From contig JASJDW010000039.1 of NCBI GenBank assembly GCA_030064955.1, positions 1-28,671 of the forward strand: a stretch of 28,671 bases of DNA. The letters are read 5' to 3'. Made by a program: the position numbers and the translations under genes. Shown one piece after another: positions 8,674 to 28,671 of the stretch. Numbering within the stretch: position 1 is the first letter of the stretch; every line of letters starts with the position of its first letter. The notes under the pieces are model-generated. The model searched no databases, was not told where the DNA came from, and saw nothing but the letters and a program-made list of their open reading frames with translations. Source of the DNA: Crocosphaera sp. (GTDB lineage Bacteria; Cyanobacteriota; Cyanobacteriia; Cyanobacteriales; Microcystaceae).

Positions 8674-8711
8674 ATTGATAAGGATAAATTGTGTTAGTTG
8701 TCGAGAAATAT

Positions 8712-9452
8712 TTAGCAATTATAATTTGCTTGAGATAGGGACAATTCAGGTAAAGTCCGAGCTAAAATAGTTAAAGGATCTAGAAAAATTTTTTCTTTTC
8801 TATTTTGATTCATCTGTAAATCCCAATATTTACTCAGTAAATGAATTTCTGTGCATCCGACAACAAACTTTTCTATATTATACTTGGTTTTTAAGGATTC
8901 TAAAATAGGAAAACACTCTTTTATTGTTCCTTGCACTTTAAGATGGTAAATCATTTGATGAATTATATTTTGATCTTCTTCATCCAGTAAAATTAGATAA
9001 TTTTTAGCCATTGGCCAAAATTCATGATTTTGAAAAATTTCTAATTTTTTCGTTCCTTTTGAACAAATCAAGAGATGTTTCTCTTTTTGCTTTAAAATAT
9101 CAATCATTATAATATCTATTAAAGAAATAATTCGCTTTTTAAATTCATCAGGAAGTTGCGGTAACAAGTAATGAGAAGTTATACAACAAATAATAATTTT
9201 TGAGACATTTAGTTGGCATAATTTCGAGAGAGTGTCAATTAATTTTTCCAAAAAATAATGATAATCTTGCTTAAGAAACACTTCGGTTCTATCAGGAAAA
9301 CTTGGATCAGAATAAACGATTATTTTAGGAAATTCTTGTTCTCGTTGCTTGTCAAGATTATATTCATATATTGTCTTTAAAAATTCTGCTGATGCTAAGG
9401 GGCCCATTCCCCCTAAAATTCCTATCATTTCTGATTGATTACTTTGTTTCAT
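8712..9452 (-). CDS. Aspartate/glutamate racemase family protein (McyF-like).
   Basis: ATG at 9452. The N-terminal IGILGGMGPLASAEF motif is present. The two catalytic-Cys motifs of PLP-independent Asp/Glu racemases are present: IIICCITSHY (compare PCNTAH) and VVGCTEIHLL (compare GCTE). Length is 246 aa. Confidence 0.85.
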   Translation of the reverse strand: MKQSNQSEMIGILGGMGPLASAEFLKTIYEYNLDKQREQEFPKIIVYSDPSFPDRTEVFLKQDYHYFLEKLIDTLSKLCQLNVSKIIICCITSHYLLPQLPDEFKKRIISLIDIIMIDILKQKEKHLLICSKGTKKLEIFQNHEFWPMAKNYLILLDEEDQNIIHQMIYHLKVQGTIKECFPILESLKTKYNIEKFVVGCTEIHLLSKYWDLQMNQNRKEKIFLDPLTILARTLPELSLSQANYNC

Positions 9453-15600: not shown

Positions 15601-15731
15601 TTATCTAGGTGTCCTTCTAACAAAAATGCCCCTTGAGTTCGATAATAATTATTAGAATTCTTGTGATTTAATAACCATAGATATTTTTGCTGAGGGGAGA
15701 GGCGAAATCCTTCTATTTTTTTAGTAATCAT
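9654..15731 (-). CDS. NRPS: His-less C-like (interface-type) domain, then A(Asp code)-T-E-C(DCL-type).
   Basis: ATG at 15731. The N-terminal C-fold domain has C1 (RLSPQQKYLWLL) and C2 (RLEILRTTF) motifs, but C3 is GLPSLLADRFS instead of HHxxxDG. A domain: YTSGSTGKPKG, FGADLGNT, NHYGPTETT, YRTGDLAHY, GRIDHQIKLHG, with code DLTKVGHVGK. T domain: ELGGDSILG. E domain: PLNPIQQWFF and HHLLMDGVSWRI. Terminal C domain: DIYPLSPLQQGLLFH and SHHHLLLDGW. Confidence 0.95.
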   Translation of the reverse strand: MITKKIEGFRLSPQQKYLWLLNHKNSNNYYRTQGAFLLEGHLDKERLMNALQMVIQRLEILRTTFYKLPESTLPLQVIGDSYVPFIEQYNLQKESKEKQLEQIEAIFKNLLQRPLNLEKMPLFKIALVQCSANELTLIIGLPSLLADRFSLRHLIREISICHEQKREENIIDEPFQYVDFSEWQNELLESPETAEGREYWQQQTSSGYFELKMPLTLQKNHEFAANFQPGFITLTLEQKDFQLFESLTKKYQITYQDFFLSCFLIFLSRLTHEEEVTVGLGSSNRHHEELAQSIGLMAKYLPMSTPVDSSLNFITFCQQISQKVQELSKCQDYFVPEAEKFVGNGITFETDFHSNKITAQGEIKGTLIREFSCIQPYQLNVFCQQYSQGIDIEFHYNTKSFSSDVIEGWLRNYYTLLMNACAKPTQKIEELDLLTDDEKQRILLEFNPSLISYSLENSLNDSCIHHLFETQVKQTPQDIAVICEEEKLTYSQLNALANQLAHHLRHLGVKPDDCVGICVERSPWILIGLLGILKAGGAYVPLDPILPHERLKFMVDNSQAQIVITQQHLKSIISPLAAQTVILDGDETVISHYSEANLDIKVTSENLAYVIYTSGSTGKPKGVAIEHRQLVNYVQGIIDRLQLPKKASYGLISTFGADLGNTMIFPSLCHGGCLHIISQENMTDPLGLEDYLSQQRGIDYLKIVPSHLQALISESPNPSQILPKKTLVLGGETTPWELVQKVKKLAPNCQIVNHYGPTETTVGVLTYQVTQESQDRGTASVPLGSPLPNTQIFVLDSQLRPVPVGFPGEIYIGGDNLARGYLNQPNLTQDRFQSHPFNQQLTLKVKNSHLKLKITRGEWFNREAKFKMQTSHTTTLNLKNFKIKLSQRLYRTGDLAHYLPDGNIEFLGRIDHQIKLHGFRIELGEVEAKLKNHPSVRDTRVMVREKTDENKLLVAYVVSYATNKPKISELRNFLQKSLPEFMIPNCFVFLDRIPLTPNGKLDRQKLPLPEITRSQVETTYVSPRTPQEGTLAKIWADILHLEQVGVEDNFFELGGDSILGTQIVARAKLAGLKLKPIDLFEHQTIAALAKIIETEAFKLQIGDNQGQVPLNPIQQWFFQLSLPNLHHWNMSILLDIPPNVLVTDLETVIQGLAEHHDSLKLSFRPEKSGWIQYYGEIKEKITFIKRDLSNIPEKELSSTLATQATQVQNSLNLEHPPLFRVVWFDLGVKRGARLLVIIHHLLMDGVSWRIWLEDFHTAYNQVKRGENIQLGAKTTSFQYWSKKLKDYAQSESILSELDYWLAQFPASPSYLPRIHQQNGKVEAKIEKVIVFLDAKDTDAALHKVSKHYRTQMNELLLCGLLQTYQSWTGNNYLWVELEGHGREELFEEIDLSRTLGWFTTRFPLLLSCDPCFSPSQSLEVVKETLRQIPNRGIGYGMLRYLNQQKEIGTQLSNLPQPELCFNYLGQFTQEDSIFPLLFDDRGSEKSGLGQHTSSITLDVMVVEGQTRFEWTYNSRQYQPETIEKLAQDTINTLKTLIDDCLKSKPNYTPDDFPLAHLTQERLDKIVLKFPAIADIYPLSPLQQGLLFHCLYEAESNLYCQQKVFTLSGALNEDKFRLAWETIINRHDSLKSAFIWQNLVTPLQVIPSEVSLPWYQEDWRFLSISSQEKALEKYLKTDAQQGFSFANAPLMRLSLFRLSDNQYYLIWSHHHLLLDGWCNSIIFQEVFSVYQSLSQEKKVRLSPVSSYKNYINWLNKNNDSKAEKFWKQSLKGIKKATQWGIELPLTNKNTQINQNQAREQSQLTTEITEKLINWTQSQHLTLNTVLQGCFAFLLSRYSGEDEIIFGATVSGRPPELVGVESMVGLLINTIPVSVSIQPQLCLLDWFKQLQKEQIERLEYQYNSLVQIQKWSDITPESQLFESFITVENYPIDPSLHQGEIKIVDVKSFSQTNYSLGVTVELYPTFLLVIDYNSQQFTEKSVRRLLDQLQTLIENVPNYANQNLSEITITPTEENKILLDSFNADFD

Positions 15732-15827: not shown

Positions 15828-16640
15828 TTAGCTCCAATAATAAATACTTTGATTATCATGAGACACAGCTAAAAAGCCGCCTATAGTAATACGCTTTTTG
15901 CTTCCAGAGACATCTGCAACTTTATGCATAATTGTACTTCCTTTAAAGATAACCATATCTCCGACATCGGGATTAAAGAGCGTTTGAGGAGATTTATCTA
16001 AGTTCTTTTTGAGGTCAGCAAAAAACTCCTTGAGTTCTTTTTTTTCTTTATCTATTTTACTCAGAAACACATCATAAATAACTAATTCTCCTCCTAATTC
16101 TGGTTTATCAATTACTAAAAAATAACTCATGGAATCAGGTAAATCTGCTTGGGTTTTCAAATAATCATAACCAGTATTATATAAAGCTTCACTACCAGTA
16201 TGGGCAGGAATTCCACCTTGCTGTGGTTGTACAAATCGAATGGTTGCTGGCGTGTAGTAATTACCATTTTCTTGAGGGATTTTTATTTTCCTTCCTCCTG
16301 AAATTTGACTAAAAACTGATTCAACGTTTGTTTCAAAATCAGTAACAAATACCTTTTTTAAAGTGGCTCTCAAATCTTTTGATTCTTGAAAATAATCATA
16401 ATCACTCATGACTTTTTGAAATAGATTGAGTCCTATAGTTTCTCCATACATCGTAGGATGTAAGTTAGTTTGATAAAATGAAAGTTTTTGGCATACCTCA
16501 TCCATTTCTTGCTGTGAAAACACCTGTTTAATAATTATTCCATGAAGCTTTTCTTGATAAATTTGAGAGATTAAATCTTGAGAGGCAGTCAAGTCTTTTA
16601 AAGAAAGTGTAAGCCAGTTTAGTTGAGTTTGTTTGTTCAT
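15828..16640 (-). CDS. Stand-alone Fe(II)/2-oxoglutarate enzyme of the P4H-like fold. It is WelO5/AmbO5-like and has His-x-Gly in place of His-x-Asp, so it is a putative halogenase.
   Basis: ATIRFVQPQQGGIPAHTGSE aligns to the P4H-type block ending pHxD, with Gly156 where the Asp should be. This is followed by SYFLVIDKPELGGELVIYD, VGDMVIFKGSTIMHKV (distal His246) and KKRITIGGF (2OG-binding Arg). The C-terminus IGGFLAVSHDNQSIYYWS and the block YYTPATIR match my recollection of WelO5. The track start at 16661 is a TTG. The first ATG is at 16640. Confidence 0.75.
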   Translation of the reverse strand: MNKQTQLNWLTLSLKDLTASQDLISQIYQEKLHGIIIKQVFSQQEMDEVCQKLSFYQTNLHPTMYGETIGLNLFQKVMSDYDYFQESKDLRATLKKVFVTDFETNVESVFSQISGGRKIKIPQENGNYYTPATIRFVQPQQGGIPAHTGSEALYNTGYDYLKTQADLPDSMSYFLVIDKPELGGELVIYDVFLSKIDKEKKELKEFFADLKKNLDKSPQTLFNPDVGDMVIFKGSTIMHKVADVSGSKKRITIGGFLAVSHDNQSIYYWS

Positions 16641-16686
16641 AATTGTTCTTAAGTTTTTCAAGATTTTTATGGGGGTTAAACTTGTC

Positions 16687-17721
16687 TTAATTTGAGTAAG
16701 ACTGCGCCATTCCTACCAGAACTTTTCGTTCACCAAGATAAGGCATTCTTCCGTGACAAACTAGCATATTATCCAACAAAAGAATATCTCCTGTTTGCCA
16801 AGGAAAAATTATGGTTTCTTGTTGATAACAATGACAAATTTCAGCAATAATGGAAGGGTCAATGGGAGATCCATCTCCGTAATAAGCATTACGGGGTAAG
16901 TCTTCTTCTTTATACTCAGTTAAAAACAAATCTTGAATTTGGGGATCTAGACTAGATATATGGAATAAGTGCGCCTGATTAAACCATATTTTTTCTTTAG
17001 TCTGGGGATGAATAGCAGTTGCTTGACAGACTTGCCAAGTTTTTAGGCGATCGCCTTCGTTCCATTGCCAGTTAATTCTCTGCTGACGACAATAGGCTTC
17101 GACGACTGATTTTTCCTCAGTCTGAAAGACATTTTGCCAACTTAAATCTAATCCTTTACTATAGTTTCGCACATATAGAATCTTTTTTTCTTCAAATTGA
17201 GCAACAAGTTTCGGGGATAGTCTTTTGAAGATTTTTCGACTGTCTGCGATCGGGGTATTCCCCCCCTCTTTCGCTGCTTTTTGGCAAAAAAAGGCTATTT
17301 TAAGCGGCCAAGTACAACTATAGGCCATTTCGTTATGTAAAGGAATCGTTTGATGAGCAGGATATTCGGTTGAGGTGTGAATTTTTTCGGTTACCTGCGA
17401 TCGTGGTGTTGAACGATAAGTATAATCTAATAAATCTCCCCAAATTATTTGAAGTAATTGTTCAAATTCTACTAGCTTTTGGAGCGGGAAATTACGCAAT
17501 AAAATGCCACCATATTGATGTAACTTTTCTTCAATAAAGTTACGGTTGATTTCTAACCAACTGCGTAAATTCAAGCCTTCTAAGGTAGGTTGAATAATTA
17601 AAGGAATCTTTTCTCTAAAATAGCTGCTTTTAATTAATCCATGAGCTTCAATGTTAACAGATTTACGCCTAACGAGGCTTAACTTTTGATGTCCTAAATT
17701 TTTGAGTTTTTGTTGAGTCAT
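16687..17721 (-). CDS. TauD/TfdA-family Fe(II)/2OG dioxygenase, SyrP-like. It is a putative hydroxylase acting on a carrier-protein-bound amino acid.
   Basis: ATG at 17721. The facial triad is intact: IPLHNEMAY (His129-x-Glu131) and LVCHGRMPY (His323). GGNTPIADS follows the triad as in TauD/SyrP-type enzymes. The N-terminal LNLRSWLEINRNFIEEKLHQYGGILLRNF is typical of NRPS-associated TauD homologues. Confidence 0.85.
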   Translation of the reverse strand: MTQQKLKNLGHQKLSLVRRKSVNIEAHGLIKSSYFREKIPLIIQPTLEGLNLRSWLEINRNFIEEKLHQYGGILLRNFPLQKLVEFEQLLQIIWGDLLDYTYRSTPRSQVTEKIHTSTEYPAHQTIPLHNEMAYSCTWPLKIAFFCQKAAKEGGNTPIADSRKIFKRLSPKLVAQFEEKKILYVRNYSKGLDLSWQNVFQTEEKSVVEAYCRQQRINWQWNEGDRLKTWQVCQATAIHPQTKEKIWFNQAHLFHISSLDPQIQDLFLTEYKEEDLPRNAYYGDGSPIDPSIIAEICHCYQQETIIFPWQTGDILLLDNMLVCHGRMPYLGERKVLVGMAQSYSN

Positions 17722-17793: not shown

Positions 17794-18357
17794 CTAGAGA
17801 TTTTTAGCTAAGTCCAATGTAAATTTTTGTTGAACACCTGTCTTGACAGAATCAGACAAATATTTAAAAACTTTACGATAGCGAAGACGGTAAAATAATA
17901 TATAAATTCCAATTTTATGATGCCAAGGTACATAATCAAATTCTTCGATAACATTTGCCATATGTAAGATAACTAAATTGAGCCATTCTGAATAACTAAT
18001 CGTGATTTTATCAGAGGTTAACCGATTAATAATACAAATTTCCGACCTTTGGTTAGGTTGAATGTCAAAATAATTTTCTCGTTGTTTACAAATGCAAAAT
18101 AAATAGACAATTTTCTCAGCTTCTTCTCCAATCGCTTCTTGTAATTCTTTTCGTTGACAAAATTTTAAAATGTAGTTTTTTTGGGTTCCTTCTGTGCCAT
18201 AAAAAGAATGAAAATACCCAGCCAAACAGAGAGTAGGAGCACATTTCCATTTTTTTAATAAATCTCCGGTTCCGACTAAATGCTCATAAAACGTCCTTTT
18301 TGTATGAACAATTCTATGGGTTTGATAAGATTTGAGCAGATATAAAACATTTTCCAT
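17794..18357 (-). CDS. Hypothetical protein with an HD-domain-like His-rich N-terminal motif. Function is unknown.
   Basis: ATG at 18357. The 187-aa ORF is co-directional and tightly packed between cluster genes. The motif string HRIVHTKRTFYEHLVGTGDLL...LAGYFHSFYGTEG resembles the H...HD metal motif of HD-superfamily proteins, but with HS instead of HD. I cannot make a confident family assignment from sequence alone. Confidence 0.6.
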   Translation of the reverse strand: MENVLYLLKSYQTHRIVHTKRTFYEHLVGTGDLLKKWKCAPTLCLAGYFHSFYGTEGTQKNYILKFCQRKELQEAIGEEAEKIVYLFCICKQRENYFDIQPNQRSEICIINRLTSDKITISYSEWLNLVILHMANVIEEFDYVPWHHKIGIYILFYRLRYRKVFKYLSDSVKTGVQQKFTLDLAKNL

Positions 18358-18407: not shown

Positions 18408-21400
18408 TTAACTGTTAGTTTTGCGTCGCATTCTTTTTAATCTTTTTTGGGCAATTCCTTCTAATTGCTCTGCTTTACCAAATTGTCTTCTTTGTTCTAA
18501 TTCTATTAGTTTTTGTTTGAGAGTAAGCAAAGGAATATTTGGATTGTCTATAATAGTTTTCAATAAACTTATAAATTGCTCGATCCAGTTTTGAATTGTT
18601 TCTGGTTTAAATAAATCTGCATTATAGGTTACAGTTAAGGTCAAATTATCTTCATTTTCTGCTAAATTCCAAGTTAAATCTCTTCGAGTTGCACCCGAAA
18701 AATTTAACACTGCTTTAACATCAAGATCGGTAAATTGTAATCCTTGACCAAATTTATCTAAATTAAATTGAACATTAATCAAAGGGGGACGACTGGGATC
18801 TCGTTTTAATTTCAATTTTTGTAAAAGTTGAGAATAGGGATAAGTTTGATGTTCATAAGCTTCTAATAGGGTTTGTTTTATATAAGCTAAATGTTGAGAA
18901 AAAGTTGTTTTTGGCTCACGAAAACGCACTGGTAATACATTAACACAATACCCGACTAATTTTTTTCTACCTGTCGCTAATTGTCCGGCTGCTGAAATTC
19001 CAATTACTCGATCATTTTGCTGAGATAAATGCTGTAAAAGCACATCAAAAATAGCCAAGAGTATCATAAATAAAGTTACTCCTTGTTGATGCTCTAAATT
19101 TTTTATTTTGTCTTTTAAACTACTCTCAATAATTCCAAATTCCTGTTTCCCTTGATAGGTTTGTATGGGAGGACGAGGGAAGTCCATGGGTAAGTCTAAT
19201 TGAGGAATAATATCATTAAATTGTTGTAACCAATAACTTTCATTCTTTGAATTATATAGATTAGTTTGGTGATTAAGAGATACATATTCACTAAATTGAT
19301 CTGGTTGTTTTAATGTGGTTTTAATTCCCTTTTTTTGTGCATTATAAAGTGCAGCTAATTCCTGCATCATAAGATCAATTGACCAACCATCTGAGATAAT
19401 ATGATGAATCGTCAATACCAACCAATGTAACTCTGAAGAAACTTTAACAATATGCCATCTTAATGGGGGATAATCACTCATATTAAAAGTTTCTTGCACG
19501 GTTTTATTTAACCAGGCTGTCATTTCAGCTAGTTCATTTTTGCTAAAATCTAAATAGGGAATTTCAATAGTATACTGAGGTAAAATTTCTTGAGTTTCTC
19601 CCTCAACATCAATTAGAATGCGTAAAGCTTCATGACGATTCACAATCGTTTGGATCGCTTGATTTAAGGCTTTAATATCTAATTTTCCTGTTAATTCTAA
19701 GCGTAATGAGTCGTTATAAGCAACTGATCCCTCTTCTTGGAGTTGTGCTAATGTCCAAAGTTGTTTTTGTGCTAACGTTAAGGGGATTTGATGACGAGAA
19801 CGAGCAATAATAAGGGATTGTTGATTAATTAAAGAACTATCAGGGGTTGGTAAAGAAATTATCTCAGTAAATCCTGTCTCTTGTAAAATTTTCTGCCATT
19901 TTTTTACGGATATCAGGGGATAAGAAGGACGTAATTCTTGATCTGTAAATTTCCACCATCCTTCTGTTAACCCAAAAATCAAATCTAACCAACGCTGGGG
20001 AGACGTTCCTTCCATTAAAATGATAATTCCCCCTGGCATTAATAGTTGATGAATATGTTTTAAACTCTGAATTAGGTTAGCGGTACTATGAATTACATTA
20101 GCGGCAATAATAATATGATAGGTCTTTCTTCCTAAGTCTTGGCTGTGGGGTTCCTGTTCAATGTCTAAACTGCCATAATGCAGACAAGAATAATGGTGAA
20201 AAACTTGTTTTGCACGGTTAATAAAGAGGGGAGAAAGGTCGGTAAAATAATATTCTACAGACGTTTGGGATAAATTAGGAACAATATAGGCAGTTGTTCC
20301 CCCTGTTCCTGCTCCTATCTCTAAAATACGGGCTTTTTCGCCTTCATTAATTGAGTCTAAAGCGAAACTAACAGTTTTTTCAATTAAAGTATTCAGAAAA
20401 ACTGCCATGGGAGATGTTTTATAAAGTTGAGTCGCAGCACTTAAGTCACCTTGAGGAAATATTAACTGTAGGGGATTAACTTTACCTTGTAATACCTCTG
20501 CTAAAGCGGAACCACAACGGTTGAGTAACGTAATTTCTGCTTGTAAAAAAGGATATTGAGTGGCAATTTCTTCTGCTAATATTTTAGATTCAATTATCTC
20601 TGGCTTTTTAATAATTTCTCCACCGGAAGGGGTAAAGTGGAAAATATCTTCTTCTGCTAAAATTTCTAACAACCGTTGCCAAAGTGAAGAAAATGAAGGC
20701 ATAATTCCCAATTTTTTCTTTATTTCTGGAGTCAATTTTTCCCCCTGAATAAAGTTGATTCCCAATTGCTCAAAAGCTTCGATGATATAGGCTAAACTCA
20801 GCTTTTCTATTTGTGCAAATCCTTGGGGATATTCCTGCAATTCTGAGTGCTGAGAAAGATGACTTATTAAAGGAAGTAAACGCCGATAAATAATGTTAGG
20901 AGATAATCGGTTTGCACTCACAGAAGAATTAATCGTTTCTTGAGTCTTTTTAGTGGGAAAAAAGCCTCCTTCTCGTAATTCTATGACACTAGATTTAATC
21001 GCTTCTTTCAAAAAATCAATATCTTCATCCGTATGTGCGCTAGAGAGAAAACAATTACGTCCTTCCCAAATATAAATGCCCTTTTCTAATAAGTGATAGT
21101 AGAGTAAATCTAAATTTTCTGGGGATGAAAAGCGAAACAATGAACCAAAATAAACAATTTTAAGAGGAATTTCCGCTTTTTCAAAATAATGATTCAACTG
21201 ATTAGCCAACTCAGTTGTCCGTCTATTTAATTGTTGTTGTAAACCTTCTCCCGCTTCTTTCAGATATTGTAAAATAGCATAAGCCCCAGCCATACCTAAA
21301 TGATTTTTATTAAAAGTTCCAGCAAAAAATGTTTTTTCGGCGCGAGGATAGGAATTATCCCCATAATTCCATTCTCCTCCATCAATGGCATCTAAATAAC

Positions 21401-24400
21401 GCGATTTACCAGCTACTACCCCAATTGGTAAACCGCCTCCTACAATTTTTCCATAAGTAACCAAATCCGCTTCAATGCCAAACCATTTTTGCGCCCCCCC
21501 TGGATGAATCCGAAATCCTAACAATACCTCATCAAAAATTAGAGGAATTTGGGCTGTTTGGGTGAAAGTGCGTAATTTTTGTAAAAAAGCTTTCGGTTGT
21601 ACATGGGGACGACGACTGGGAACCGGTTCTACTAAAACTGCGGCTAAATCATCTTGATGGTGAGATAAAATTTCTAAACTACGGGGGCTATCGTACTCTA
21701 ACATCAGCACGTCTTTGACCGCATTTTCAGTGATTCCCGCTACCATTGGAACAGTTTCCATTGTCCCGTGAGGTGCAACGGCTAAAACCCCATCAAAATG
21801 TCCGTGATAAGATCCCCTAAATAAAGCGATTTTGCGCCGTCCTGTGACAGTTCTCGCTAATCTTAGGGCTGTCATGACCGCTTCAGTCCCAGAATTACAA
21901 AATAAAACCCGTTCAACCCCTGTTAAATCTTGGATTAATTGGGCGACTTCAGCGGCTAAATTAGATTGAGGCCCAATTTGTAACCCTTTTTCTAGCTGTT
22001 TCGCGATCGCTTGACTAATAACAGGGGCATTATGCCCTAATAACAATACGCCAAACCCCATTGTAATATCTAAATATTCATTACCATCGATGTCCCAAAA
22101 TCGAGATCCCTGAGCTTTTTCTCCGACAATGGGATAAAGGAGTTCTTTGATTGAAGGGCGAAATCCAGCGACGGCTCGACTATCTGCAAGAAGAGGACGG
22201 AATGCGTTAGCTTTTGCTTTAGATTTCGCAGTTTTGGCATTATAACGCTTAATTAACTCATTTACATGGTTTTGTTGTTGAGGGGTAAAATTAACCGTTT
22301 GAGGGGTTTGTCTCCAGGTTTTTTTTTTCTCTGTTTCCGGCAAAGATAAAGAATTATTAGAATTTTGAGGAACAACGGGCAATTTTGGGGATTGATTTAG
22401 GGGTTTTCCCTGTAATAATGCCAATTGTTGAGACATTACCTCTAATTGCTGAGTAATAATTCTTTCGAGATTAGTTTCTGCTAAAGTAGAATTAAGCAAG
22501 GGCTTGGACAGAGATTTTTGACTAATTTCTTGAATTTCTGGCTTAGATGGTTCTAAAATTGGCGAAGAAGGAATTTCTTGGGCGATATGTTCTCCTAATG
22601 CTTCAATTGTTGCCCATACTTCAAATAATTGGCTAATATTAATCTTTAATCCATAGTTATTTTCAATGGCTCGCACCACATCTAATAAAACCAGGGAATC
22701 TGCTCCCATTTCTAAAAATGATTGACGATAATCTAATTTACTGGGGTCAATATCGAGTAAATTGGCGACTAAATTCCTTAATTCTTGAATAATCTGCTTT
22801 TTATGATGATTATCTTCTTCTGGTGTCAGGGGGTTATCAGTGGCTTGCTTCGGAAAATTTTGAGAGTCTGTCATAGTTTTTTGGGGATTTTCGAGATAAT
22901 TAGGAGAATTTTGGCTATATTCCCGTTCAATCTTTTCTGTTTCTTCCAGCCAATAGAATTGACGTTGAAAAGGATAAGTTGGTAAAGATAAGCGATGTCG
23001 GTGATAGTCCTGATCCCATCCTTTCCAGTTGATCTTTGCCCCTTGAACAGATAAATGAGCCATACTTGAGGCTAAAATTGTCCAATCTTCTGCTCCTTCA
23101 ACTAAAGAAGGAAGCCAAATTCCTTGCTGCCAACGTTGTCCTAATTTAGATAATATTGGTTTAGCCCCAATTTCTAAAAATAACTGGTATTTTTGCCCTA
23201 ATAATGTCTGAATTCCTTCTTTAAAACGTACTGGGTTACAGGTTTGTTGTCCCCAATAATTGCCATCAGGAATTTTATCTTCTGGCCACAATTTACCGGT
23301 TAAATTAGAAATTAAAGGAATTTTTGGCTTCTGAAAGGAAATGTCTGCCATACTGGTTTGCCATTCCTCTAAAATCGGCTCTATTAGGGGAGAGTGAAAC
23401 CCATGAGAAACCGTTAAAGGATGGTTTTTAATGCCTTCTCTCTCCAAAATCTCGATGATTTTCTCAATCGGTTCGTCTCTACCTGAAATAACCGTATTTT
23501 CTTCTCCATTTAAACTGCCGATTACGACCCAAGGAGACGATAGTTGCATTAGTATCGCTTTAATCAAATCTTCAGAGGCAAAAACAGCTACCATTCGCCC
23601 TTTTTCTGGTAAATTTTCGATTAATTTCGCTCTTATGGCAATTAATTTTAACCCTTCTTCTAACGTAAACACGTCAGCGAGACACGCAGCAACATACTCT
23701 CCTAGACTGTGGCCAATCATCGCAGCAGGTTTAATTCCCCAGGATAACCACATTTGAGCCAGGGCATATTCTAGGGAAAATAAAGCTGTTTGGGTATAAA
23801 TTGGTCTTTGAATGATATTTTGTGGAGAATCATTAGAATATAAAACAGAAAGCAAAGATTCCTCTAAATAAGGCTCTAAAATTTCCTCACAACGTTGCAA
23901 CCATCGCCGAAAAGTCGGTTGAGTTTCGTACAATTGCTTACCCATTCCCCAATATTGAGATCCTTGTCCTGTGAAGAGAAAGACCACTGGCGTTGGTTTT
24001 CGTTTGCTAAACTCTCCTGAAACGAGATGGGGATCTTTGGTGTTATTAAGAAAATTCTGTAATGAATCGCCGATTTGTTGTCGATTTTTACCAAATACTG
24101 CTAAACGCTGCTTAAAATGAGAGCGTCCTGTATTAGCTGTCCAACAAATATCCCCTAAGCTCAGATGAGCGTTATTGTGAAGAAAGTCATGGTAACGATA
24201 CGCTAATGTTTTTAAGGCAGGTTCAGTTTTAGCAGATAAGGTTAATAGGTGTTGGAGACGTTCAGGATTATTGGAGACAATAACAGACTCTGGTGCTTCT
24301 TCGAGAATGATATGACAATTCGTCCCGCCAAAACTAAATCCGCTCACCCCTGCAATCCTTTTTCCTGGTTCAGATACCCACGGTTGATTCTCTGTCGGGA

Positions 24401-25589
24401 TGAAAAAGCGGCTATCAGTCATCTCTAAATGAGGATTTAAGTCCTTCAGATGTAGATGCGGAAAAAACTGCCGTTTTTGCAACGATAAGATCACCTTGAT
24501 GATCCCGGCAATTCCGGCTGCATTTTCTAAATGTCCAATATTCGTCTTTACTGAGCCAATCGCACATTTTTCCTCAGGTTTGCGCCCTTCTTCTAATACA
24601 GCTTTAATCGCTCTTATTTCCACTGGATCTCCCAAGGGCGTTCCTGTTCCGTGTGCTTCTAGATAACTTACCTGATTCGGGTAAATTCCGGCGTTTTTTA
24701 AGGCTTTTTTGATAACGGCTTGCTGTGCTAACCCATTAGGGGCTGTTAACCCATTACTCGCCCCATCATGATTAATGGCTGATCCCCGAATAATGGCTAA
24801 AAGGCGATCGCCTGTTTCTAAGGCATCGGATAATCGCTTAATGGCAATCATTCCACACCCTTCTCCTCGCACATAACCATCCGCTTTCGCATCAAAGGTT
24901 TTACACCGTCCTTCTCCTGACATCATCTGTGCTTGGGAAAAAGTAATGGTCATATCAGGTGAAATCATTAAACTGACTCCCCCGGCTAAGGCGAGATCGC
25001 ATTCTCTTTGTTGTAAACTTTGGCACGCTAAATGAACGGCGACTAAAGAAGAAGAACAAGCCGTTTCGACAGCAAGGGAAGGGCCATGAAGATCGAGAAA
25101 ATAGGAGACACGATTAGCCGCTAAACTCAAGGTTAACCCGGTACCATGATAAGCATTAATGCGCTCCAAATCCTGACATAATAAGCGTCCATAGTCAAAA
25201 TTACCAATGCCAACAAATACCCCTGTTTGACTTCCCTTCAGGGAAATTGGAGCAATCCCTGCATTTTCTAAACATTCCCAGGAGACCTCCATCACTAAAC
25301 GCTGTTGTGGATCGATTCTCGTGGCCTCTTTGGGGGAAATATTGAAGAAATGCGGGTCAAAATCTCCGATCTGCTCTAAAAATCCTCCCCAACGACTATT
25401 GGTTTTTCCCGTCGTTTGCGGCTCAGGATGATAATGTTGTGAGATTGACCAACGATCTGATGGCACTTGTGTAATCCCATCAAGTCCTTTCACCAATAAT
25501 TGTTCAAAGGCGGCCGGAGCGGGCGATCGCGGAAAGCGACATCCCATTCCGATAATGGCAAAGAACTGTGGGGCAGATGGCTGATTCAT
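18408..25589 (-). CDS. Hybrid PKS/NRPS: KS-AT-ACP-aminotransferase(class III, PLP)-cMT-C. It is a beta-amino fatty acid forming module.
   Basis: ATG at 25589. KS: TACSSSLVAVH, EAHGTGTPLGDP, NIGHLENAAG. AT: FTGQGSQ, GHSLGE, HGFHS (malonyl-type). ACP: LEMGADSL. Aminotransferase: CNSGTEAVM, FDEV, YGKIVGGGLP (PLP Lys1381). Methyltransferase: ILEIGAGTGGTT, YFTDLS, IIAANVIHST, LLMPGGIIILME, FGLTEGWWKF, which is the PKS C-MT pattern. C domain: HHIISDGWS. There are no KR, DH or ER motifs. Confidence 0.95.
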   Translation of the reverse strand: MNQPSAPQFFAIIGMGCRFPRSPAPAAFEQLLVKGLDGITQVPSDRWSISQHYHPEPQTTGKTNSRWGGFLEQIGDFDPHFFNISPKEATRIDPQQRLVMEVSWECLENAGIAPISLKGSQTGVFVGIGNFDYGRLLCQDLERINAYHGTGLTLSLAANRVSYFLDLHGPSLAVETACSSSLVAVHLACQSLQQRECDLALAGGVSLMISPDMTITFSQAQMMSGEGRCKTFDAKADGYVRGEGCGMIAIKRLSDALETGDRLLAIIRGSAINHDGASNGLTAPNGLAQQAVIKKALKNAGIYPNQVSYLEAHGTGTPLGDPVEIRAIKAVLEEGRKPEEKCAIGSVKTNIGHLENAAGIAGIIKVILSLQKRQFFPHLHLKDLNPHLEMTDSRFFIPTENQPWVSEPGKRIAGVSGFSFGGTNCHIILEEAPESVIVSNNPERLQHLLTLSAKTEPALKTLAYRYHDFLHNNAHLSLGDICWTANTGRSHFKQRLAVFGKNRQQIGDSLQNFLNNTKDPHLVSGEFSKRKPTPVVFLFTGQGSQYWGMGKQLYETQPTFRRWLQRCEEILEPYLEESLLSVLYSNDSPQNIIQRPIYTQTALFSLEYALAQMWLSWGIKPAAMIGHSLGEYVAACLADVFTLEEGLKLIAIRAKLIENLPEKGRMVAVFASEDLIKAILMQLSSPWVVIGSLNGEENTVISGRDEPIEKIIEILEREGIKNHPLTVSHGFHSPLIEPILEEWQTSMADISFQKPKIPLISNLTGKLWPEDKIPDGNYWGQQTCNPVRFKEGIQTLLGQKYQLFLEIGAKPILSKLGQRWQQGIWLPSLVEGAEDWTILASSMAHLSVQGAKINWKGWDQDYHRHRLSLPTYPFQRQFYWLEETEKIEREYSQNSPNYLENPQKTMTDSQNFPKQATDNPLTPEEDNHHKKQIIQELRNLVANLLDIDPSKLDYRQSFLEMGADSLVLLDVVRAIENNYGLKINISQLFEVWATIEALGEHIAQEIPSSPILEPSKPEIQEISQKSLSKPLLNSTLAETNLERIITQQLEVMSQQLALLQGKPLNQSPKLPVVPQNSNNSLSLPETEKKKTWRQTPQTVNFTPQQQNHVNELIKRYNAKTAKSKAKANAFRPLLADSRAVAGFRPSIKELLYPIVGEKAQGSRFWDIDGNEYLDITMGFGVLLLGHNAPVISQAIAKQLEKGLQIGPQSNLAAEVAQLIQDLTGVERVLFCNSGTEAVMTALRLARTVTGRRKIALFRGSYHGHFDGVLAVAPHGTMETVPMVAGITENAVKDVLMLEYDSPRSLEILSHHQDDLAAVLVEPVPSRRPHVQPKAFLQKLRTFTQTAQIPLIFDEVLLGFRIHPGGAQKWFGIEADLVTYGKIVGGGLPIGVVAGKSRYLDAIDGGEWNYGDNSYPRAEKTFFAGTFNKNHLGMAGAYAILQYLKEAGEGLQQQLNRRTTELANQLNHYFEKAEIPLKIVYFGSLFRFSSPENLDLLYYHLLEKGIYIWEGRNCFLSSAHTDEDIDFLKEAIKSSVIELREGGFFPTKKTQETINSSVSANRLSPNIIYRRLLPLISHLSQHSELQEYPQGFAQIEKLSLAYIIEAFEQLGINFIQGEKLTPEIKKKLGIMPSFSSLWQRLLEILAEEDIFHFTPSGGEIIKKPEIIESKILAEEIATQYPFLQAEITLLNRCGSALAEVLQGKVNPLQLIFPQGDLSAATQLYKTSPMAVFLNTLIEKTVSFALDSINEGEKARILEIGAGTGGTTAYIVPNLSQTSVEYYFTDLSPLFINRAKQVFHHYSCLHYGSLDIEQEPHSQDLGRKTYHIIIAANVIHSTANLIQSLKHIHQLLMPGGIIILMEGTSPQRWLDLIFGLTEGWWKFTDQELRPSYPLISVKKWQKILQETGFTEIISLPTPDSSLINQQSLIIARSRHQIPLTLAQKQLWTLAQLQEEGSVAYNDSLRLELTGKLDIKALNQAIQTIVNRHEALRILIDVEGETQEILPQYTIEIPYLDFSKNELAEMTAWLNKTVQETFNMSDYPPLRWHIVKVSSELHWLVLTIHHIISDGWSIDLMMQELAALYNAQKKGIKTTLKQPDQFSEYVSLNHQTNLYNSKNESYWLQQFNDIIPQLDLPMDFPRPPIQTYQGKQEFGIIESSLKDKIKNLEHQQGVTLFMILLAIFDVLLQHLSQQNDRVIGISAAGQLATGRKKLVGYCVNVLPVRFREPKTTFSQHLAYIKQTLLEAYEHQTYPYSQLLQKLKLKRDPSRPPLINVQFNLDKFGQGLQFTDLDVKAVLNFSGATRRDLTWNLAENEDNLTLTVTYNADLFKPETIQNWIEQFISLLKTIIDNPNIPLLTLKQKLIELEQRRQFGKAEQLEGIAQKRLKRMRRKTNS

Positions 25590-25602
25590 AGATAAATATT
25601 CA

Positions 25603-27051
25603 TTAAATAAGTTTTTTTTGCGCTAATTTCTCAGATAAAGTATCAATATTAGGATATTCGTACATTAAAGCGGGGTTAAGGTGGTTTCCTAACCAATCAC
25701 TGAGATCTCCTATCATTCCCACCCCTTCTGCGGAGGATAAACCATAGCTTTGAAAGGAACTGGTAATGTCGATTTCTTCTTCATCTATTTCTAAGAGTTC
25801 TGCTAAATAGGCGATTAACCAAGTTTCTATTTCAGAGGAGGTGTTAGCCCGTGTTGAGGTAGACTTAATCTCATTGTTTGAGCTTTGATGGCTATTTTTG
25901 CGAGAAAGATTACCTACTAATTGGATATATTCCTCCATTGCTTCCTGGTTGCTCATTCCTCGATATTGATTCCAGGTACTCCATTGGATATACTTGCGAG
26001 GATGTAGAATAGGGTTAGGTTCGCTTTCTTGGCAATCCCCTTCAATGGCTTGTTTTTCTAGGGCATAAATGTCTAGTTTTTGTTTATCTTCAGGAATCTC
26101 GACTTGCTCGAATTTTACTTGATTTAAACAGGTTTGAAATTGTAATTCGAGATCGTTTAAATCATGTCCTTGGCGAATTAAATTATGTCCATATTTATCT
26201 TCTCCTGAGACTAATAAACAGTAATGTCGCTGAATATTATGTCCATTTTCATCAATAAAATTCCCTTGCCAACGATAAGGATAAACTTGGGTACTAGGAC
26301 GCACATAACGCCCAATAATTGCTAAACGGCGACGGTTAGAGCGATTCGGAAATGAGCGGTGCATGACTTTTTCGGTAAAAATAATGGCTTGTCCTGCTTT
26401 AATTGGAACGGTTTCTAAGGGCCAATCATTTTCATTAAAGTCATAGGAAAGGGAATATTTTTGTTCCCTTTGCCAGACAGTTTTATGGGCACTAATTCCG
26501 GCAAATACTCCTTCTTTGGCAGGAATACTAGCGGGTAACATGGGAAAGATTTTTTGATGGGAACCGTTAGCAAACTGCATACAACCATTCTCTAAGTCTG
26601 CATCGTCTAAAGCAACCCAAACTGTTAGATTAATCGAGTCTTCATTCGCATCATAAACTAGGGTTTTTTTCTGATAATCAATATCACTAGACGTATAATA
26701 TTCCTTAGCTTGATGCCATTTAATTTCTCCTTGCCCTGGCAATTTACAAAATACGTTAGTATACCATAACAAGAGATCATTTCCTGCAATTTGCTGAACT
26801 CTTTTGACCAGATCTAAATCTTGAAATAAATTAGCAATGGGTTGATGGAATAAATGTAAATCTCTTGGAGTTTCCAAATTAAATACATTGTTATAAAACC
26901 CCATGATTTCTTGTCCGTCTGCTTCAACGATCAAGCGACTATAGGTTTCTAAACAGTTTTTAGCATCAGTCAGTTTTGAGGATTCAAAGATGTCTAAAGG
27001 TCCAACCCATCCCTTTTCTTGAAAATGATTAATCTCCTTTAATGTCAACAT
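25603..27051 (-). CDS. HctB-like tridomain: PhyH-family Fe(II)/2OG halogenase (His-x-Ala), acyl-CoA-binding-protein (ACBP) domain, then ACP.
   Basis: ATG at 27051. GEIKWHQAKEYY gives His113-x-Ala115 where PhyH hydroxylases have WHQD. The distal motif is VMHRSFPNRSNRRR (His231). Residues ~300-385 (LDIYALEKQAIEGD...RKYIQWSTWNQYRGMSNQEAMEEYIQLV) align with canonical ACBP (IYSHYKQATVGD...[26 protein letters not shown]). The C-terminal carrier motif is SYGLSSAEG. Confidence 0.85.
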   Translation of the reverse strand: MLTLKEINHFQEKGWVGPLDIFESSKLTDAKNCLETYSRLIVEADGQEIMGFYNNVFNLETPRDLHLFHQPIANLFQDLDLVKRVQQIAGNDLLLWYTNVFCKLPGQGEIKWHQAKEYYTSSDIDYQKKTLVYDANEDSINLTVWVALDDADLENGCMQFANGSHQKIFPMLPASIPAKEGVFAGISAHKTVWQREQKYSLSYDFNENDWPLETVPIKAGQAIIFTEKVMHRSFPNRSNRRRLAIIGRYVRPSTQVYPYRWQGNFIDENGHNIQRHYCLLVSGEDKYGHNLIRQGHDLNDLELQFQTCLNQVKFEQVEIPEDKQKLDIYALEKQAIEGDCQESEPNPILHPRKYIQWSTWNQYRGMSNQEAMEEYIQLVGNLSRKNSHQSSNNEIKSTSTRANTSSEIETWLIAYLAELLEIDEEEIDITSSFQSYGLSSAEGVGMIGDLSDWLGNHLNPALMYEYPNIDTLSEKLAQKKLI

Positions 27052-27066: not shown

Positions 27067-28671
27067 TTATGTAGATAAAATAAGCTTTTTTTGTTGAGAT
27101 GGTAACGGGTTTAATTGATGATGTAGGAATTGTTGACGACAAGTTTGACGCTGAATTTTGCCGCTAGAGGTTTTCGATAAACTTCCCTGTCTAATTAAAA
27201 CAATCTGATACACCCGTAAATCATGTTCTGCTGCGATCGCTTCTCGAATTCTCCCTTTGACTTGAGCCACCTCTAAATCTTTGCTGTGGCTGCGTTTTAT
27301 TTCTTGCACAACCACTAAACGTTCTTCTCCCTTGATTTCTACTGAAAAAGCTGCACCAAATCCTTCTCGTAAAGCGGGATGGCTTTTTTCTACCGTTAGC
27401 TCAATATCTTGGGGATAATGATTGCGTCCTTCTATAATAATCAAGTCTTTGAGTCTTCCCGTCACAAATAATTGTCCTTCATAGAAAAATCCTAAATCAC
27501 CAGTTCGCAAAAAAGGGCCTTCTCCTGTGTCCTGACGATAAGCTTGAAAGATTAGCTTAGTAGCTTGGGGATTATTCCAATATCCTTGAGCAACAGTCGC
27601 TCCACGTACCCAAATTTCTCCGATCTCTGTGGGTTGACACCCTGTTAGATGCTGAGGATGAACAATCTGGATTTGAGTATCAATTTCACTGCTACCACAT
27701 CCGACTTGGATTTGTGTTGGTAAATTTTTGGGTGGTGTGACTTGCTCTTGCTCTGTTCCTAATGCTTCTTTGACTACTTTTACCTGATGTTGTTCTAAGG
27801 CTTCTGTTTCTAGAGCTAAAAACAAAGGAGACTCTGCTTGCCTAAGTGCCGTAACTTTTAAGGTAGCTTCTGCTAACCCATATCCTGGGGAAAATGTTGA
27901 TTGTTTAAAACCATAAGGTGCAAAGGTTCGACTAAATAATTCTAGGGTTTCGGCCCTGACCCGTTGCGCACCGTTAAGTGCCATTTGCCAGCAACTTAAG
28001 TCTAAATCCTTGGCATCGGTGGGTTTAAATTTTCGCACACATAGATCATAAGCAAAATTAGGTGCGGCACTATGGGTGGCTTGGAAACGGGAAATTATTT
28101 TTAACCAGTTAATCGGTTTGAGTAGAAATGTTACAGGAGAGAGTAAATAGCAAGGAATTCCTACCAACAGAGGGGTTAAAATTCCATAGACTAACCCCAA
28201 ATCATGAAAAGTTGGCAACCAAGAAACGATTTTACTATCCTGACTATGATTCCAACCGCGATCGAGATCTTCACAGTTGATCATTAAATTACCATGACTG
28301 ACCATGACCCCTTTTGGCTCACCTGTAGAACCAGAGGTATATTGGAGTAAAGCTAGGGTTTCTGAGTTTATTTTTAGGGAATTCCCGTTTCTCTGGGTAA
28401 GATTAATAGGACTTGTCGTATCTAACCAAATTAAATGACCTAAATCTCGCCACTTATCTTTGTTTTTGGCTATTTTACTGGTGGTTAAAGCAAATTTTGC
28501 CTGTGCATTGCTAACAATTGAGTGCAACCGTTTTAAAGATTGATTAGGGCGCGGAGGATAAGCAGGAACCGCAACCATTCCAGCAGCAAAACAACCAAAT
28601 AAGGCACGAATAAACTCTAAACCAGGAGGATACAATAGTAAGACGCGATCCCCAGCCGCTCCTAACTGTTG
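27067..28671 (-). CDS. Fatty acyl-AMP ligase (FAAL), 5'-truncated by the window edge.
   Basis: The track start at 28635 is a TTG inside the gene. The frame stays open to 28671 and reads QQLGAAGDRVLLLYPPGLEF. Motifs: LQYTSGSTGEPKG, GYGLAEATL, LRTGDLGFF, GRLKDLIIIEGRNHYPQDIE, SGKIQR. It lies directly upstream of a carrier protein and a PKS, the usual FAAL context. Confidence 0.9.
   Translation of the reverse strand, partial: QQLGAAGDRVLLLYPPGLEFIRALFGCFAAGMVAVPAYPPRPNQSLKRLHSIVSNAQAKFALTTSKIAKNKDKWRDLGHLIWLDTTSPINLTQRNGNSLKINSETLALLQYTSGSTGEPKGVMVSHGNLMINCEDLDRGWNHSQDSKIVSWLPTFHDLGLVYGILTPLLVGIPCYLLSPVTFLLKPINWLKIISRFQATHSAAPNFAYDLCVRKFKPTDAKDLDLSCWQMALNGAQRVRAETLELFSRTFAPYGFKQSTFSPGYGLAEATLKVTALRQAESPLFLALETEALEQHQVKVVKEALGTEQEQVTPPKNLPTQIQVGCGSSEIDTQIQIVHPQHLTGCQPTEIGEIWVRGATVAQGYWNNPQATKLIFQAYRQDTGEGPFLRTGDLGFFYEGQLFVTGRLKDLIIIEGRNHYPQDIELTVEKSHPALREGFGAAFSVEIKGEERLVVVQEIKRSHSKDLEVAQVKGRIREAIAAEHDLRVYQIVLIRQGSLSKTSSGKIQRQTCRQQFLHHQLNPLPSQQKKLILST

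Follow-up and report, generated by a model that had tools for sequence, protein, structure and literature searches.

A putative HctB-type halogenase-ACBP-ACP tridomain protein and its conserved gene cassette in Crocosphaera and other bacteria

A tridomain gene and its predicted iron site

We analyzed a 28,671-nucleotide stretch of DNA from Crocosphaera sp. (contig JASJDW010000039.1 of assembly GCA_030064955.1, positions 1–28,671; hereafter the window), in which all genes are on the minus strand and one, at 25603–27051, encodes a 482-residue protein that joins a putative Fe(II)/2-oxoglutarate (2OG) halogenase domain, an acyl-CoA-binding protein (ACBP)-like domain and an acyl carrier protein (ACP). 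This is a single intact open reading frame (ORF) of 482 codons plus the stop codon, with neither a frameshift nor a truncation. Its ends are exactly those given in a preliminary description of this DNA, but its strand is the minus strand; the plus-strand reading of 25603–27051 was rejected because its translation meets many stops. The same description had proposed a fusion of halogenase, ACBP and ACP, and Pfam searches recover all three domains in the one polypeptide, each above its gathering threshold: PhyH at residues 12–242 (E 1.3e-21), ACBP (PF00887) at residues 304–379 (E 7.6e-18; 64.9 bits against a gathering threshold of 28.3), and PP-binding at residues 411–474 (E 4e-10). From Pfam, phmmer and Foldseek together, the halogenase domain, with its PhyH fold, is assigned to residues 1–295 (26167–27051). 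The protein is 100% identical to MDJ0598496.1, which derives from a metagenome-assembled genome (MAG) and is named 'acyl-CoA-binding protein [Crocosphaera sp.]' by NCBI; an identical tridomain sequence is present on a 68.8-kb ENA metagenome contig, and the same PhyH-ACBP-PP-binding architecture recurs in 50 homologous clusters at 90% identity.

The motif KWHQAKE spans residues 111–117, placing His113 and Ala115, and VMHRSFPNRS contains His231. When the protein was compared with all PDB sequences using phmmer, CytC3 ranked best (E 1.2e-22), followed by SyrB2 (E 1.5e-21). The query sequence 'kwHqA' lies over 'dwHqA' in both alignments, 'vmHrsfpn' lies over 'lmHasyph' of SyrB2 and 'tmHaslph' of CytC3, and 'gRyv' lies over 'sRyv'. 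By alignment, the codons for His113-Gln114-Ala115 (26707–26715) specify the proximal iron ligand and a non-coordinating residue at the carboxylate position, and that for His231 (26359–26361) specifies the distal ligand, which matches the distal His of SyrB2 and CytC3 and had already been placed in VMHRSFPNRS. Arg248 (codon 26308–26310), aligned with the Arg of SyrB2 'sRyv', is a candidate anchor for the C5-carboxylate of 2OG, by analogy with SyrB2.

The position of Ala115 was read from a MAFFT alignment of 80 database homologues together with HctB, the hectochlorin halogenase. All 30 full-length tridomain proteins in the clade of the query have Ala in this column; HctB and its clade have Val there, and distant PhyH matches have an acidic residue, Glu in P0068–P0070 (HQE) and Asp in P0071–P0080 (HQD). 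Because the HQE and HQD proteins have Glu or Asp at this place, the same column bears a carboxylate in hydroxylase-type relatives, and on this alignment Ala115 occupies the carboxylate position of the facial triad, leaving two His and a non-coordinating residue. This is in agreement with the earlier proposal that Ala115 sits where hydroxylases carry the Asp or Glu ligand, which is supported both by the register with the WHQA of SyrB2 and CytC3 and by the acidic residues of the distant PhyH proteins; the alignment check suggested along with that proposal thus finds Ala115 within the triad column.

The site is strongly conserved. His113, His231 and Ser440, the phosphopantetheine attachment residue of the ACP, are invariant in 45 full-length homologues reaching down to 44% identity, Arg248 is present in 44 of the 45, and about 60 further positions are invariant over the same set. 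An AlphaFold2 model built with the 45 homologues has a mean pLDDT of 85 and a pTM of 0.79, with most of the halogenase domain above 90. In a Foldseek comparison the eight best PDB matches of this model consist entirely of SyrB2 and CytC3 chains (E 1.6e-20 to 1.4e-16), the SyrB2 match having an E of 1.6e-20 and a TM of 0.70 normalized to the target, and hydroxylases, epimerases and PHYH all rank lower. These data bear on an alternative explanation, in which the oxygenase domain has lost its catalytic activity and the protein contributes to chain initiation only, as the acceptor ACP for the adjacent fatty acyl-AMP ligase (FAAL) with the ACBP domain as a scaffold. No carrier other than the tridomain ACP is available to the FAAL, and the WelO5-like enzymes described below could cover halogenation; however, neither the invariance of both His, of Arg248 in all but one homologue and of some 60 other residues, nor a domain pLDDT mostly above 90, nor the absence of any frameshift or truncation is what a dead domain would lead one to expect, and we regard this explanation as extremely improbable.

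HctB of Moorena producens JHB (AAY42394.1) aligns with the query across all three domains, with 242 of 481 aligned residues identical (50%; 514 bits). It is described as a three-domain enzyme with a 2-His iron site that dichlorinates an ACP-tethered hexanoyl chain, and it was termed a 'unique three-domain halogenase' (PMC6218459). Its motif is His-Gln-Val, and the published numbering of His111/Val113/His227 agrees with our reading of AAY42394.1 (PMC6218459). HctB had been listed in the preliminary description among enzymes with a His-x-Ala/Gly signature, and this has to be corrected, since both its sequence and the published account give Val. The tridomain proteins instead form a His-x-Ala clade that includes the query, with members 51–100% identical to it, and a His-x-Val clade that includes HctB, with members about 49–53% identical to the query; one odd family member has His-x-Tyr. 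The two groups are sister clades and not orthologues. An HctB orthologue would have His-x-Val and a KS-AT-MT-KR-type polyketide synthase (PKS) downstream (KS, ketosynthase; AT, acyltransferase; MT, methyltransferase; KR, ketoreductase); the query has His-x-Ala and a PKS with an aminotransferase. The HctA/HctB logic that had been suggested for this locus is nonetheless recognizable in the tridomain architecture, the 50% identity to HctB and the upstream FAAL, and from these we infer halogenation. We conclude that the tridomain protein is quite probably an HctB-type, carrier-protein-dependent Fe(II)/2OG aliphatic halogenase, which would act in cis on a fatty acyl chain.

Several observations weigh against this conclusion. 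The top NCBIfam match, TIGR01762 'chlorinating enzyme' (116.8 bits, E 1.1e-33), lies under the curated cut-off of 226.3, and by this score the protein is outside the narrower SyrB2/CmaB-like subfamily; the sub-threshold score also accounts for its being named by NCBI after the ACBP domain, while JGI labels its homologues 'chlorinating enzyme'. Two acidic residues lie close to the iron ligands in the sequence. The first, at position 117, comes four residues beyond His113; the query clade has Glu there, and the HctB clade mostly Asp. The second, at position 227, four residues ahead of His231, is a Glu that is invariant in the family and lies over Ser231 of SyrB2. Finally, HctB also oxygenates and desaturates its substrate, giving oxygenated and vinyl-chloride products beside the dichlorinated one (PMC6218459), and a mixed outcome is for this reason possible with the query enzyme. 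The acidic residues are not a strong argument against halogenation, because HctB, a reported working halogenase, has both of them, with Asp at the equivalent of 117 and Glu at the equivalent of 227. In the HQD hydroxylase-type matches, too, the distal His is preceded at a distance of four positions by an acidic residue, in addition to a regular triad, and since the triad is already there this residue is not a ligand in those proteins. A model of HctB places Glu223, the equivalent of position 227, within 6 Å of the iron center without listing it as a ligand (PMC6218459). On these comparisons we provisionally regard Glu117 and Glu227 as candidate second-sphere residues.

The same observations bear on the possibility that the tridomain protein is mainly a hydroxylase, a ketone-forming oxygenase or a desaturase on the ACP-bound acyl chain, with the halogens of the product coming from the WelO5-type enzymes. 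The side products of HctB (PMC6218459), the conserved Glu117 and Glu227 near the site, the presence of three WelO5-like His-x-Gly genes in the same cluster, and the report that a single residue can switch between hydroxylation and halogenation in this class (BMC Genomics 2021) could all be accommodated in this way. Yet the carboxylate column is Ala in 30 of 30 clade members although relatives with Asp or Glu exist, the functional halogenase HctB shares the acidic residues, the acid before the distal His is found also in HQD proteins with a regular triad, and the nearest structures are halogenases. A predominantly non-halogenating enzyme is thus unlikely, and we retain the assignment as a probable halogenase.

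The ACBP-like and carrier domains

Canonical ACBP contacts acyl-CoA through residues corresponding to bovine Tyr28, Tyr31, Lys32, Lys54 and Tyr73, of which Lys54 (the 3'-phosphate contact) and Tyr31 touch the 3'-phospho-ADP part of CoA, which is absent from a pantetheine-tethered substrate. The ACBP-like domain of the query (residues 304–379; 25915–26142) was compared by alignment to bovine ACBP (1aca). Bovine Tyr28, Lys32 and Tyr73 are kept, as Tyr329, Lys333 and Tyr375, and Tyr31 and Lys54 are replaced, by Glu332 and Gln356. The preliminary description had the Tyr/Lys ligand-binding positions as retained, and this holds for the equivalents of Tyr28, Lys32 and Tyr73 but not for those of Tyr31 (Glu) and Lys54 (Gln); the 'RKY' of the query lies over bovine K50-G51-K52 and not over Lys54. 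None of 45 family members has Lys at the Lys54 equivalent, where Gln, Glu or His is found instead. Tyr and Glu are swapped between the Tyr28 and Tyr31 equivalents in the two tridomain clades, a feature that falls within 25984–26067 (minus strand) in the query.

Because the residues that contact the 3'-phospho-ADP of CoA are replaced, we interpret the domain as repurposed, and it probably cradles the acyl chain/pantetheine, or is a scaffold, rather than being an acyl-CoA binder. The enzyme could instead act in trans on acyl-CoA caught by the ACBP domain and not on its own ACP-bound substrate, in keeping with a domain score well above the Pfam threshold and the presence of the Tyr28, Lys32 and Tyr73 equivalents. 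We consider this very improbable: all 45 family members have Gln, Glu or His in place of Lys54 and the query has Glu in place of Tyr31, a fused ACP whose Ser is invariant and a FAAL that does not depend on CoA point to a pantetheine-tethered substrate, and HctB works on a tethered substrate (PMC6218459).

Model confidence is high across the junction of the halogenase and ACBP-like domains, and disorder in the AlphaFold2 model is confined to residues 387–400 (25852–25893; pLDDT <50), a predicted linker just ahead of the ACP, which it tethers. The model is in keeping with an ACP that swings from a rigid body formed by the halogenase and ACBP-like domains. The ACP itself (residues 411–474; 25630–25821), assigned by Pfam and alignment, carries the attachment Ser440 at codon 25732–25734. 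Among proteins of solved structure it is closest to Asl1650 (E 1.2e-14) and to the N-terminal ACP of Pks13, and the latter is loaded by a FAAL, FadD32.

The gene cluster and its conservation

The tridomain gene is closely flanked on both sides, by gaps of 15 nt on the FAAL side and 13 nt on the PKS side. The FAAL gene (27067–28671; Pfam), previously noted as preceding the tridomain gene, lies 15 nt upstream and encodes a protein that lacks a carrier domain. The window ends before the FAAL N-terminus is reached, and the TTG start at 28635 is an artifact of that end, the FAAL being 609 amino acids long on the Crocosphaera contig L001. On the other side, Pfam identifies at 18408–25589 a hybrid of PKS and nonribosomal peptide synthetase (NRPS) with the order KS-AT-ACP-aminotransferase (AMT; class III)-MT-condensation (C) domain, which, judged by its domains, would make a beta-amino acyl unit from the acyl chain and hand it to the NRPS.

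Conservation of this arrangement was examined in loci around homologues, fetched from public assemblies and from one scan of 185,579 species genomes (35 loci returned), every locus being searched by tblastn with the window's domains. The His-x-Ala clade is represented by 22 distinct loci, three of which end before the relevant region, leaving 19 that are informative. An AMT domain is present in the directly downstream PKS in 18 of these 19, and the order FAAL / tridomain / KS-AT-ACP-AMT-MT-C is kept in the same proportion (18/19); in the 18 AMT loci WelO5 homologues are usually present, one to four in number, and a TauD gene is frequent. In the His-x-Val (HctB) clade neither an AMT nor a WelO5 homologue was found (0/10 informative loci for each), and the tridomain genes are followed by PKS modules of the KS-AT-MT type. 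A downstream use different from that in the hectochlorin pathway had been anticipated from the window, and the distribution of the AMT PKS between the two clades (18/19 versus 0/10) bears this out.

The exception is a Nostoc indistinguendum MAG (L018, 8233–18502), in which a FAAL and a His-x-Ala tridomain gene are followed by KS-AT-KR-ACP-sulfotransferase-thioesterase (TE), a module of the olefin-synthase/CurM type, and no AMT PKS is present at the locus. Judged by this domain order, the product may be a terminal alkene bearing chlorine.

The cassette is found in Crocosphaera, a Trichodesmium MAG, Okeania sp. KiyG1, Oscillatoria salina, Fischerella sp. PCC 9431, Mastigocoleus testarum BC008, several Nostoc, Anabaena, Calothrix and Rivularia strains, Nostoc sp. 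UHCC 0251 and Rivularia sp. UHCC 0363 among them, and Roholtiella. In Okeania sp. KiyG1 the full cassette is present on two contigs (L010 and L011) with near-identical scores, which may be a true duplication or redundancy from the co-assembly of four single-amplified genomes. Three loci of 65–72% GC, one from a metagenome (L006) and two labeled Rhizomicrobium sp. (L025) and Burkholderia multivorans WS-FJ9 (L026), contain the FAAL, the tridomain gene, the AMT PKS and TauD, together with WelO5 where that flank is present; the MAG or scaffold labels of these high-GC bearers are of Proteobacteria. Their base composition rules out cyanobacterial contamination, and the cassette is therefore not confined to cyanobacteria. 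By comparison, a contig of a 'Crocinitomicaceae' MAG (L008) has 37% GC and a tridomain protein 78% identical to the query, and is probably a mis-binned cyanobacterial contig.

The protein encoded at 15828–16661 belongs to the WelO5 family (Pfam, E 6.8e-75). Its 'aHtGse' (His-Thr-Gly) lies over 'vHvGnd' (His-Val-Gly) of WelO5, and the distal His is also aligned. It is a second putative halogenase, situated in a lipopeptide rather than an indole-alkaloid cluster. Beyond the window, just upstream of the FAAL, L001 has two further WelO5-like genes that encode His-x-Gly, at 5601–6386 (minus strand) and 7351–8208 (plus strand). The FAAL-adjacent protein has WHFGNQ (His-x-Gly) in the Crocosphaera contig, and its orthologues in Oscillatoria salina, Mastigocoleus and the high-GC metagenome contig (L003, L004 and L006) have WHFENQ (His-x-Glu). 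The Gly/Glu difference at the carboxylate position has the look of a natural switch between halogenase and hydroxylase.

Two other genes occur beside the WelO5 genes. In four distant loci, a conserved small ORF of 103–107 amino acids with no Pfam match directly precedes the WelO5 gene nearest to the FAAL (L001, 6645–6956; L003, 6777–7088; L005, 6767–7090; L006, 6857–7174). A gene for a class II lanthipeptide-synthetase-like protein of about 1100 amino acids (DUF4135 plus LanC-like) adjoins the WelO5 genes in two loci, Crocosphaera (L001, 1556–4837, minus strand) and Oscillatoria salina (L003, 421–3741, plus strand), and may represent a neighboring cluster or be part of the tridomain cluster.

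The remainder of the window encodes further tailoring enzymes and the peptide-forming modules. The PKS/NRPS hybrid is followed by a DUF6817 protein (17794–18357), identified by Pfam, whose position is conserved in a marine sub-clade according to the locus comparison, and by a TauD-family Fe/2OG oxygenase (16687–17721; Pfam) that is a probable hydroxylase. Beyond the WelO5 gene, domain searches identify an NRPS of the order C*-A-T-(E-like C)-C (9654–15731; A, adenylation; T, thiolation; E, epimerization), an Asp/Glu-type amino acid racemase (8712–9452), a stand-alone A-T didomain (6790–8718) and a terminal NRPS module consisting of docking domain-C-A-T-TE (2627–6850). The cluster ends with an amidotransferase of the asparagine synthase (glutamine-hydrolyzing) type (628–2511; TIGR01536, 459 bits, above the cut-off), for which amidation of an Asp residue or a reaction on the beta-amino acid is conceivable. 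Among the related loci just one has a homologue, the fetched flanks being short.

The first C-like domain of the 9654–15731 NRPS (15300–15731, minus strand) is without HHxxxDG and reads GLPSLLADRF, and the PKS that precedes this NRPS already ends in a C domain with HHIISDG; from these motifs, the C-like domain is probably non-catalytic or a docking domain. The racemase gene overlaps the start of the stand-alone A-T gene (6790–9452, minus strand), and the pair resembles McyF and McyB of microcystin synthesis. The A-domain codes were read by hand from motif positions and are DLTKVGHVGK for the first domain, DARHLSLMTK for the stand-alone A-T and DASTIAAVCK for the terminal module. We take these, as weak assignments, to denote Asp, an acidic residue and Tyr respectively, and the first four residues of DARHLSLMTK match the McyB2 methyl-aspartate code.

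Proposed pathway and comparison with known systems

A pathway can be proposed in which the FAAL, which has no carrier domain of its own, would adenylate a free fatty acid and load it onto the phosphopantetheine at Ser440 of the C-terminal ACP. The ACP, on its disordered linker of about 15 residues, would then swing the acyl-pantetheine into the N-terminal halogenase domain, to which the ACBP-like middle domain would be rigidly attached, cradling the acyl chain/pantetheine or serving as a scaffold. Fe(II) would be bound by His113 and His231 only, with Ala115 freeing the third facial position for halide and Arg248 anchoring 2OG; reaction with O2 would give a Cl-Fe(IV)=O species that abstracts hydrogen from an unactivated carbon, and Cl (or Br) would rebound onto the resulting radical. 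The haloacyl-ACP would be passed to the KS of the next gene for extension with malonate, transamination to a beta-amino acyl unit and possibly methylation, after which the C domain of the PKS would hand the 3-amino acyl unit to the NRPS, three NRPS modules would extend it and the TE would release the product.

The predicted product is a linear, microginin-like halogenated beta-amino lipotripeptide; the weakly assigned A-domain codes, too, suggest a halogenated lipotripeptide with an N-terminal 3-amino group, possibly N-methylated and possibly hydroxylated. Up to three WelO5-type enzymes (His-x-Gly) on the full source contig could add further halogens. More broadly, we advance the tentative view, for which we would claim a little less than an even chance, that polyhalogenated microginin-like beta-amino lipopeptides constitute an undescribed and widespread family, defined by the His-x-Ala tridomain protein with one to four WelO5-type enzymes and TauD. 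The makers would be marine diazotrophs and mat-formers (Crocosphaera, Trichodesmium, Okeania), heterocystous cyanobacteria and some high-GC bacteria; the WelO5-type enzymes would take a fatty-acyl or lipopeptide substrate and not indole alkaloids; and one WelO5 orthologue would alternate between halogenase (His-x-Gly) and hydroxylase (His-x-Glu) from one organism to another.

Both the kind of enzyme, represented by HctB, and the chemical logic of halogenated beta-amino lipopeptides, represented by the microginins with another halogenase class, are known, and the understanding of how these enzymes work is unchanged, there being no surprise in principle. What is new is a sister clade of HctB whose pathway partner is conserved and unlike that of HctB; the pathway is of a microginin-like kind and is an orphan. 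HctB homologues were noted in 'several distinct orphan BGCs' (biosynthetic gene clusters; BMC Genomics 2021), and our literature searches returned no paper that ties an HctB-type enzyme to an AMT PKS or a beta-amino lipopeptide, or that assigns a product to the cassette. According to a January 2026 preprint, no Fe/2OG halogenase other than HctB is known to use fatty acyl chains (PMC12871659), and for this reason each new and clearly distinct clade is a candidate biocatalyst for selective C-H halogenation of unactivated alkyl chains. The exchange of Ala for Val at the carboxylate-replacing residue, together with the differences in ACBP and ACP motifs, provides natural variants for structure-function work. 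The orphan cluster family is present in ecologically important cyanobacteria (Crocosphaera, Trichodesmium and Okeania), and with up to four putative halogenases per cluster it is a lead to new halogenated lipopeptides.

Three known pathways were considered as identities for the cluster and rejected. The puwainaphycin cluster gives chlorinated products, yet no halogenase was found in it (PMC4219810). A cyanochelin-like siderophore cluster was considered for its TauD, racemase and FAAL, and the description of cyanochelin B has no halogenase or aminotransferase. The fischerazole (fsh) cluster has CylC-type halogenases, free-standing ACPs and a thiazole-forming NRPS, and our domain searches detected no heterocyclization or oxidation domain in the window. 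For Fischerella sp. PCC 9431 the fischerazole paper mentions in passing a second cluster with multiple halogenases, and the locus of that strain bearing the tridomain cassette (L013) may be this cluster.

Among characterized enzymes, HctB has the same order of Fe/2OG halogenase, ACBP and ACP, a FAAL-type activating enzyme directly upstream (an adjacency kept in both clades), a 2-His iron site with a non-coordinating residue in the carboxylate position, and acidic residues four positions after the first His and four before the second. It differs in having Val and not Ala at the carboxylate position, Glu/Tyr and not Tyr/Glu at the equivalents of bovine Tyr28/Tyr31, and Gln where the query has Lys at the Lys32 equivalent. 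Its clade as a whole differs in an ACP motif of Gly-Ser and not Ser-Ser, in lacking an aminotransferase in the downstream PKS of its 10 informative loci, and in lacking the WelO5-type genes, which accompany the His-x-Ala clade only. SyrB2 and CytC3 are the best matches in sequence and fold among solved structures, with WHQA, the distal His and the 2OG Arg aligned, and likewise use carrier-tethered substrates; in contrast to the query, to which they are just 24–26% identical, they are stand-alone enzymes that act in trans on aminoacyl-S-carrier proteins and have Ser four residues before the distal His (Ser231 in SyrB2) where the query has Glu. WelO5 and AmbO5, the carrier-independent Fe/2OG halogenases, share His-x-Gly and the distal His with the protein at 15828–16661, although WelO5 acts on free indole alkaloids and the window paralogue sits in a lipopeptide cluster.

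For the steps that follow, the MycA-type hybrids of iturin and mycosubtilin use a KS-(AT)-ACP-aminotransferase-C arrangement to build a beta-amino starter. PuwE of the puwainaphycin pathway, with the same arrangement, makes a beta-amino acyl starter for an NRPS from a fatty acid that a FAAL has activated (PMC4219810). None of these pathways is known to have a fused halogenase-ACBP-ACP loader.

Taken as a whole, the window resembles the microginin (mic) type of cluster in its layout of a FAAL, a 3-amino-acyl PKS module and about three NRPS modules with a TE. Its terminal A domain looks Tyr-like by the hand-read code, in keeping with the C-terminus of microginins. No mic-type halogenase gene (CylC type, dimetal-carboxylate) was found in the window or in the 10 kb upstream on L001. 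The mic clusters have no ACBP domain, their carrier is a free-standing ACP, and no WelO5-type or TauD genes appear in the mic descriptions compared. They nevertheless share with the window a FAAL, an ACP, a fatty-chain halogenase and a methyltransferase, and their one 3-amino-acyl-forming PKS module, together with three NRPS modules, gives a linear lipopeptide (PMC9594780). Their halogenase, MicC, is a dimetal-carboxylate enzyme of the CylC type and is unrelated to the Fe/2OG enzymes (PMC9594780); if the pathway proposed here is correct, nature makes halogenated beta-amino lipopeptides by way of two unrelated halogenase classes.

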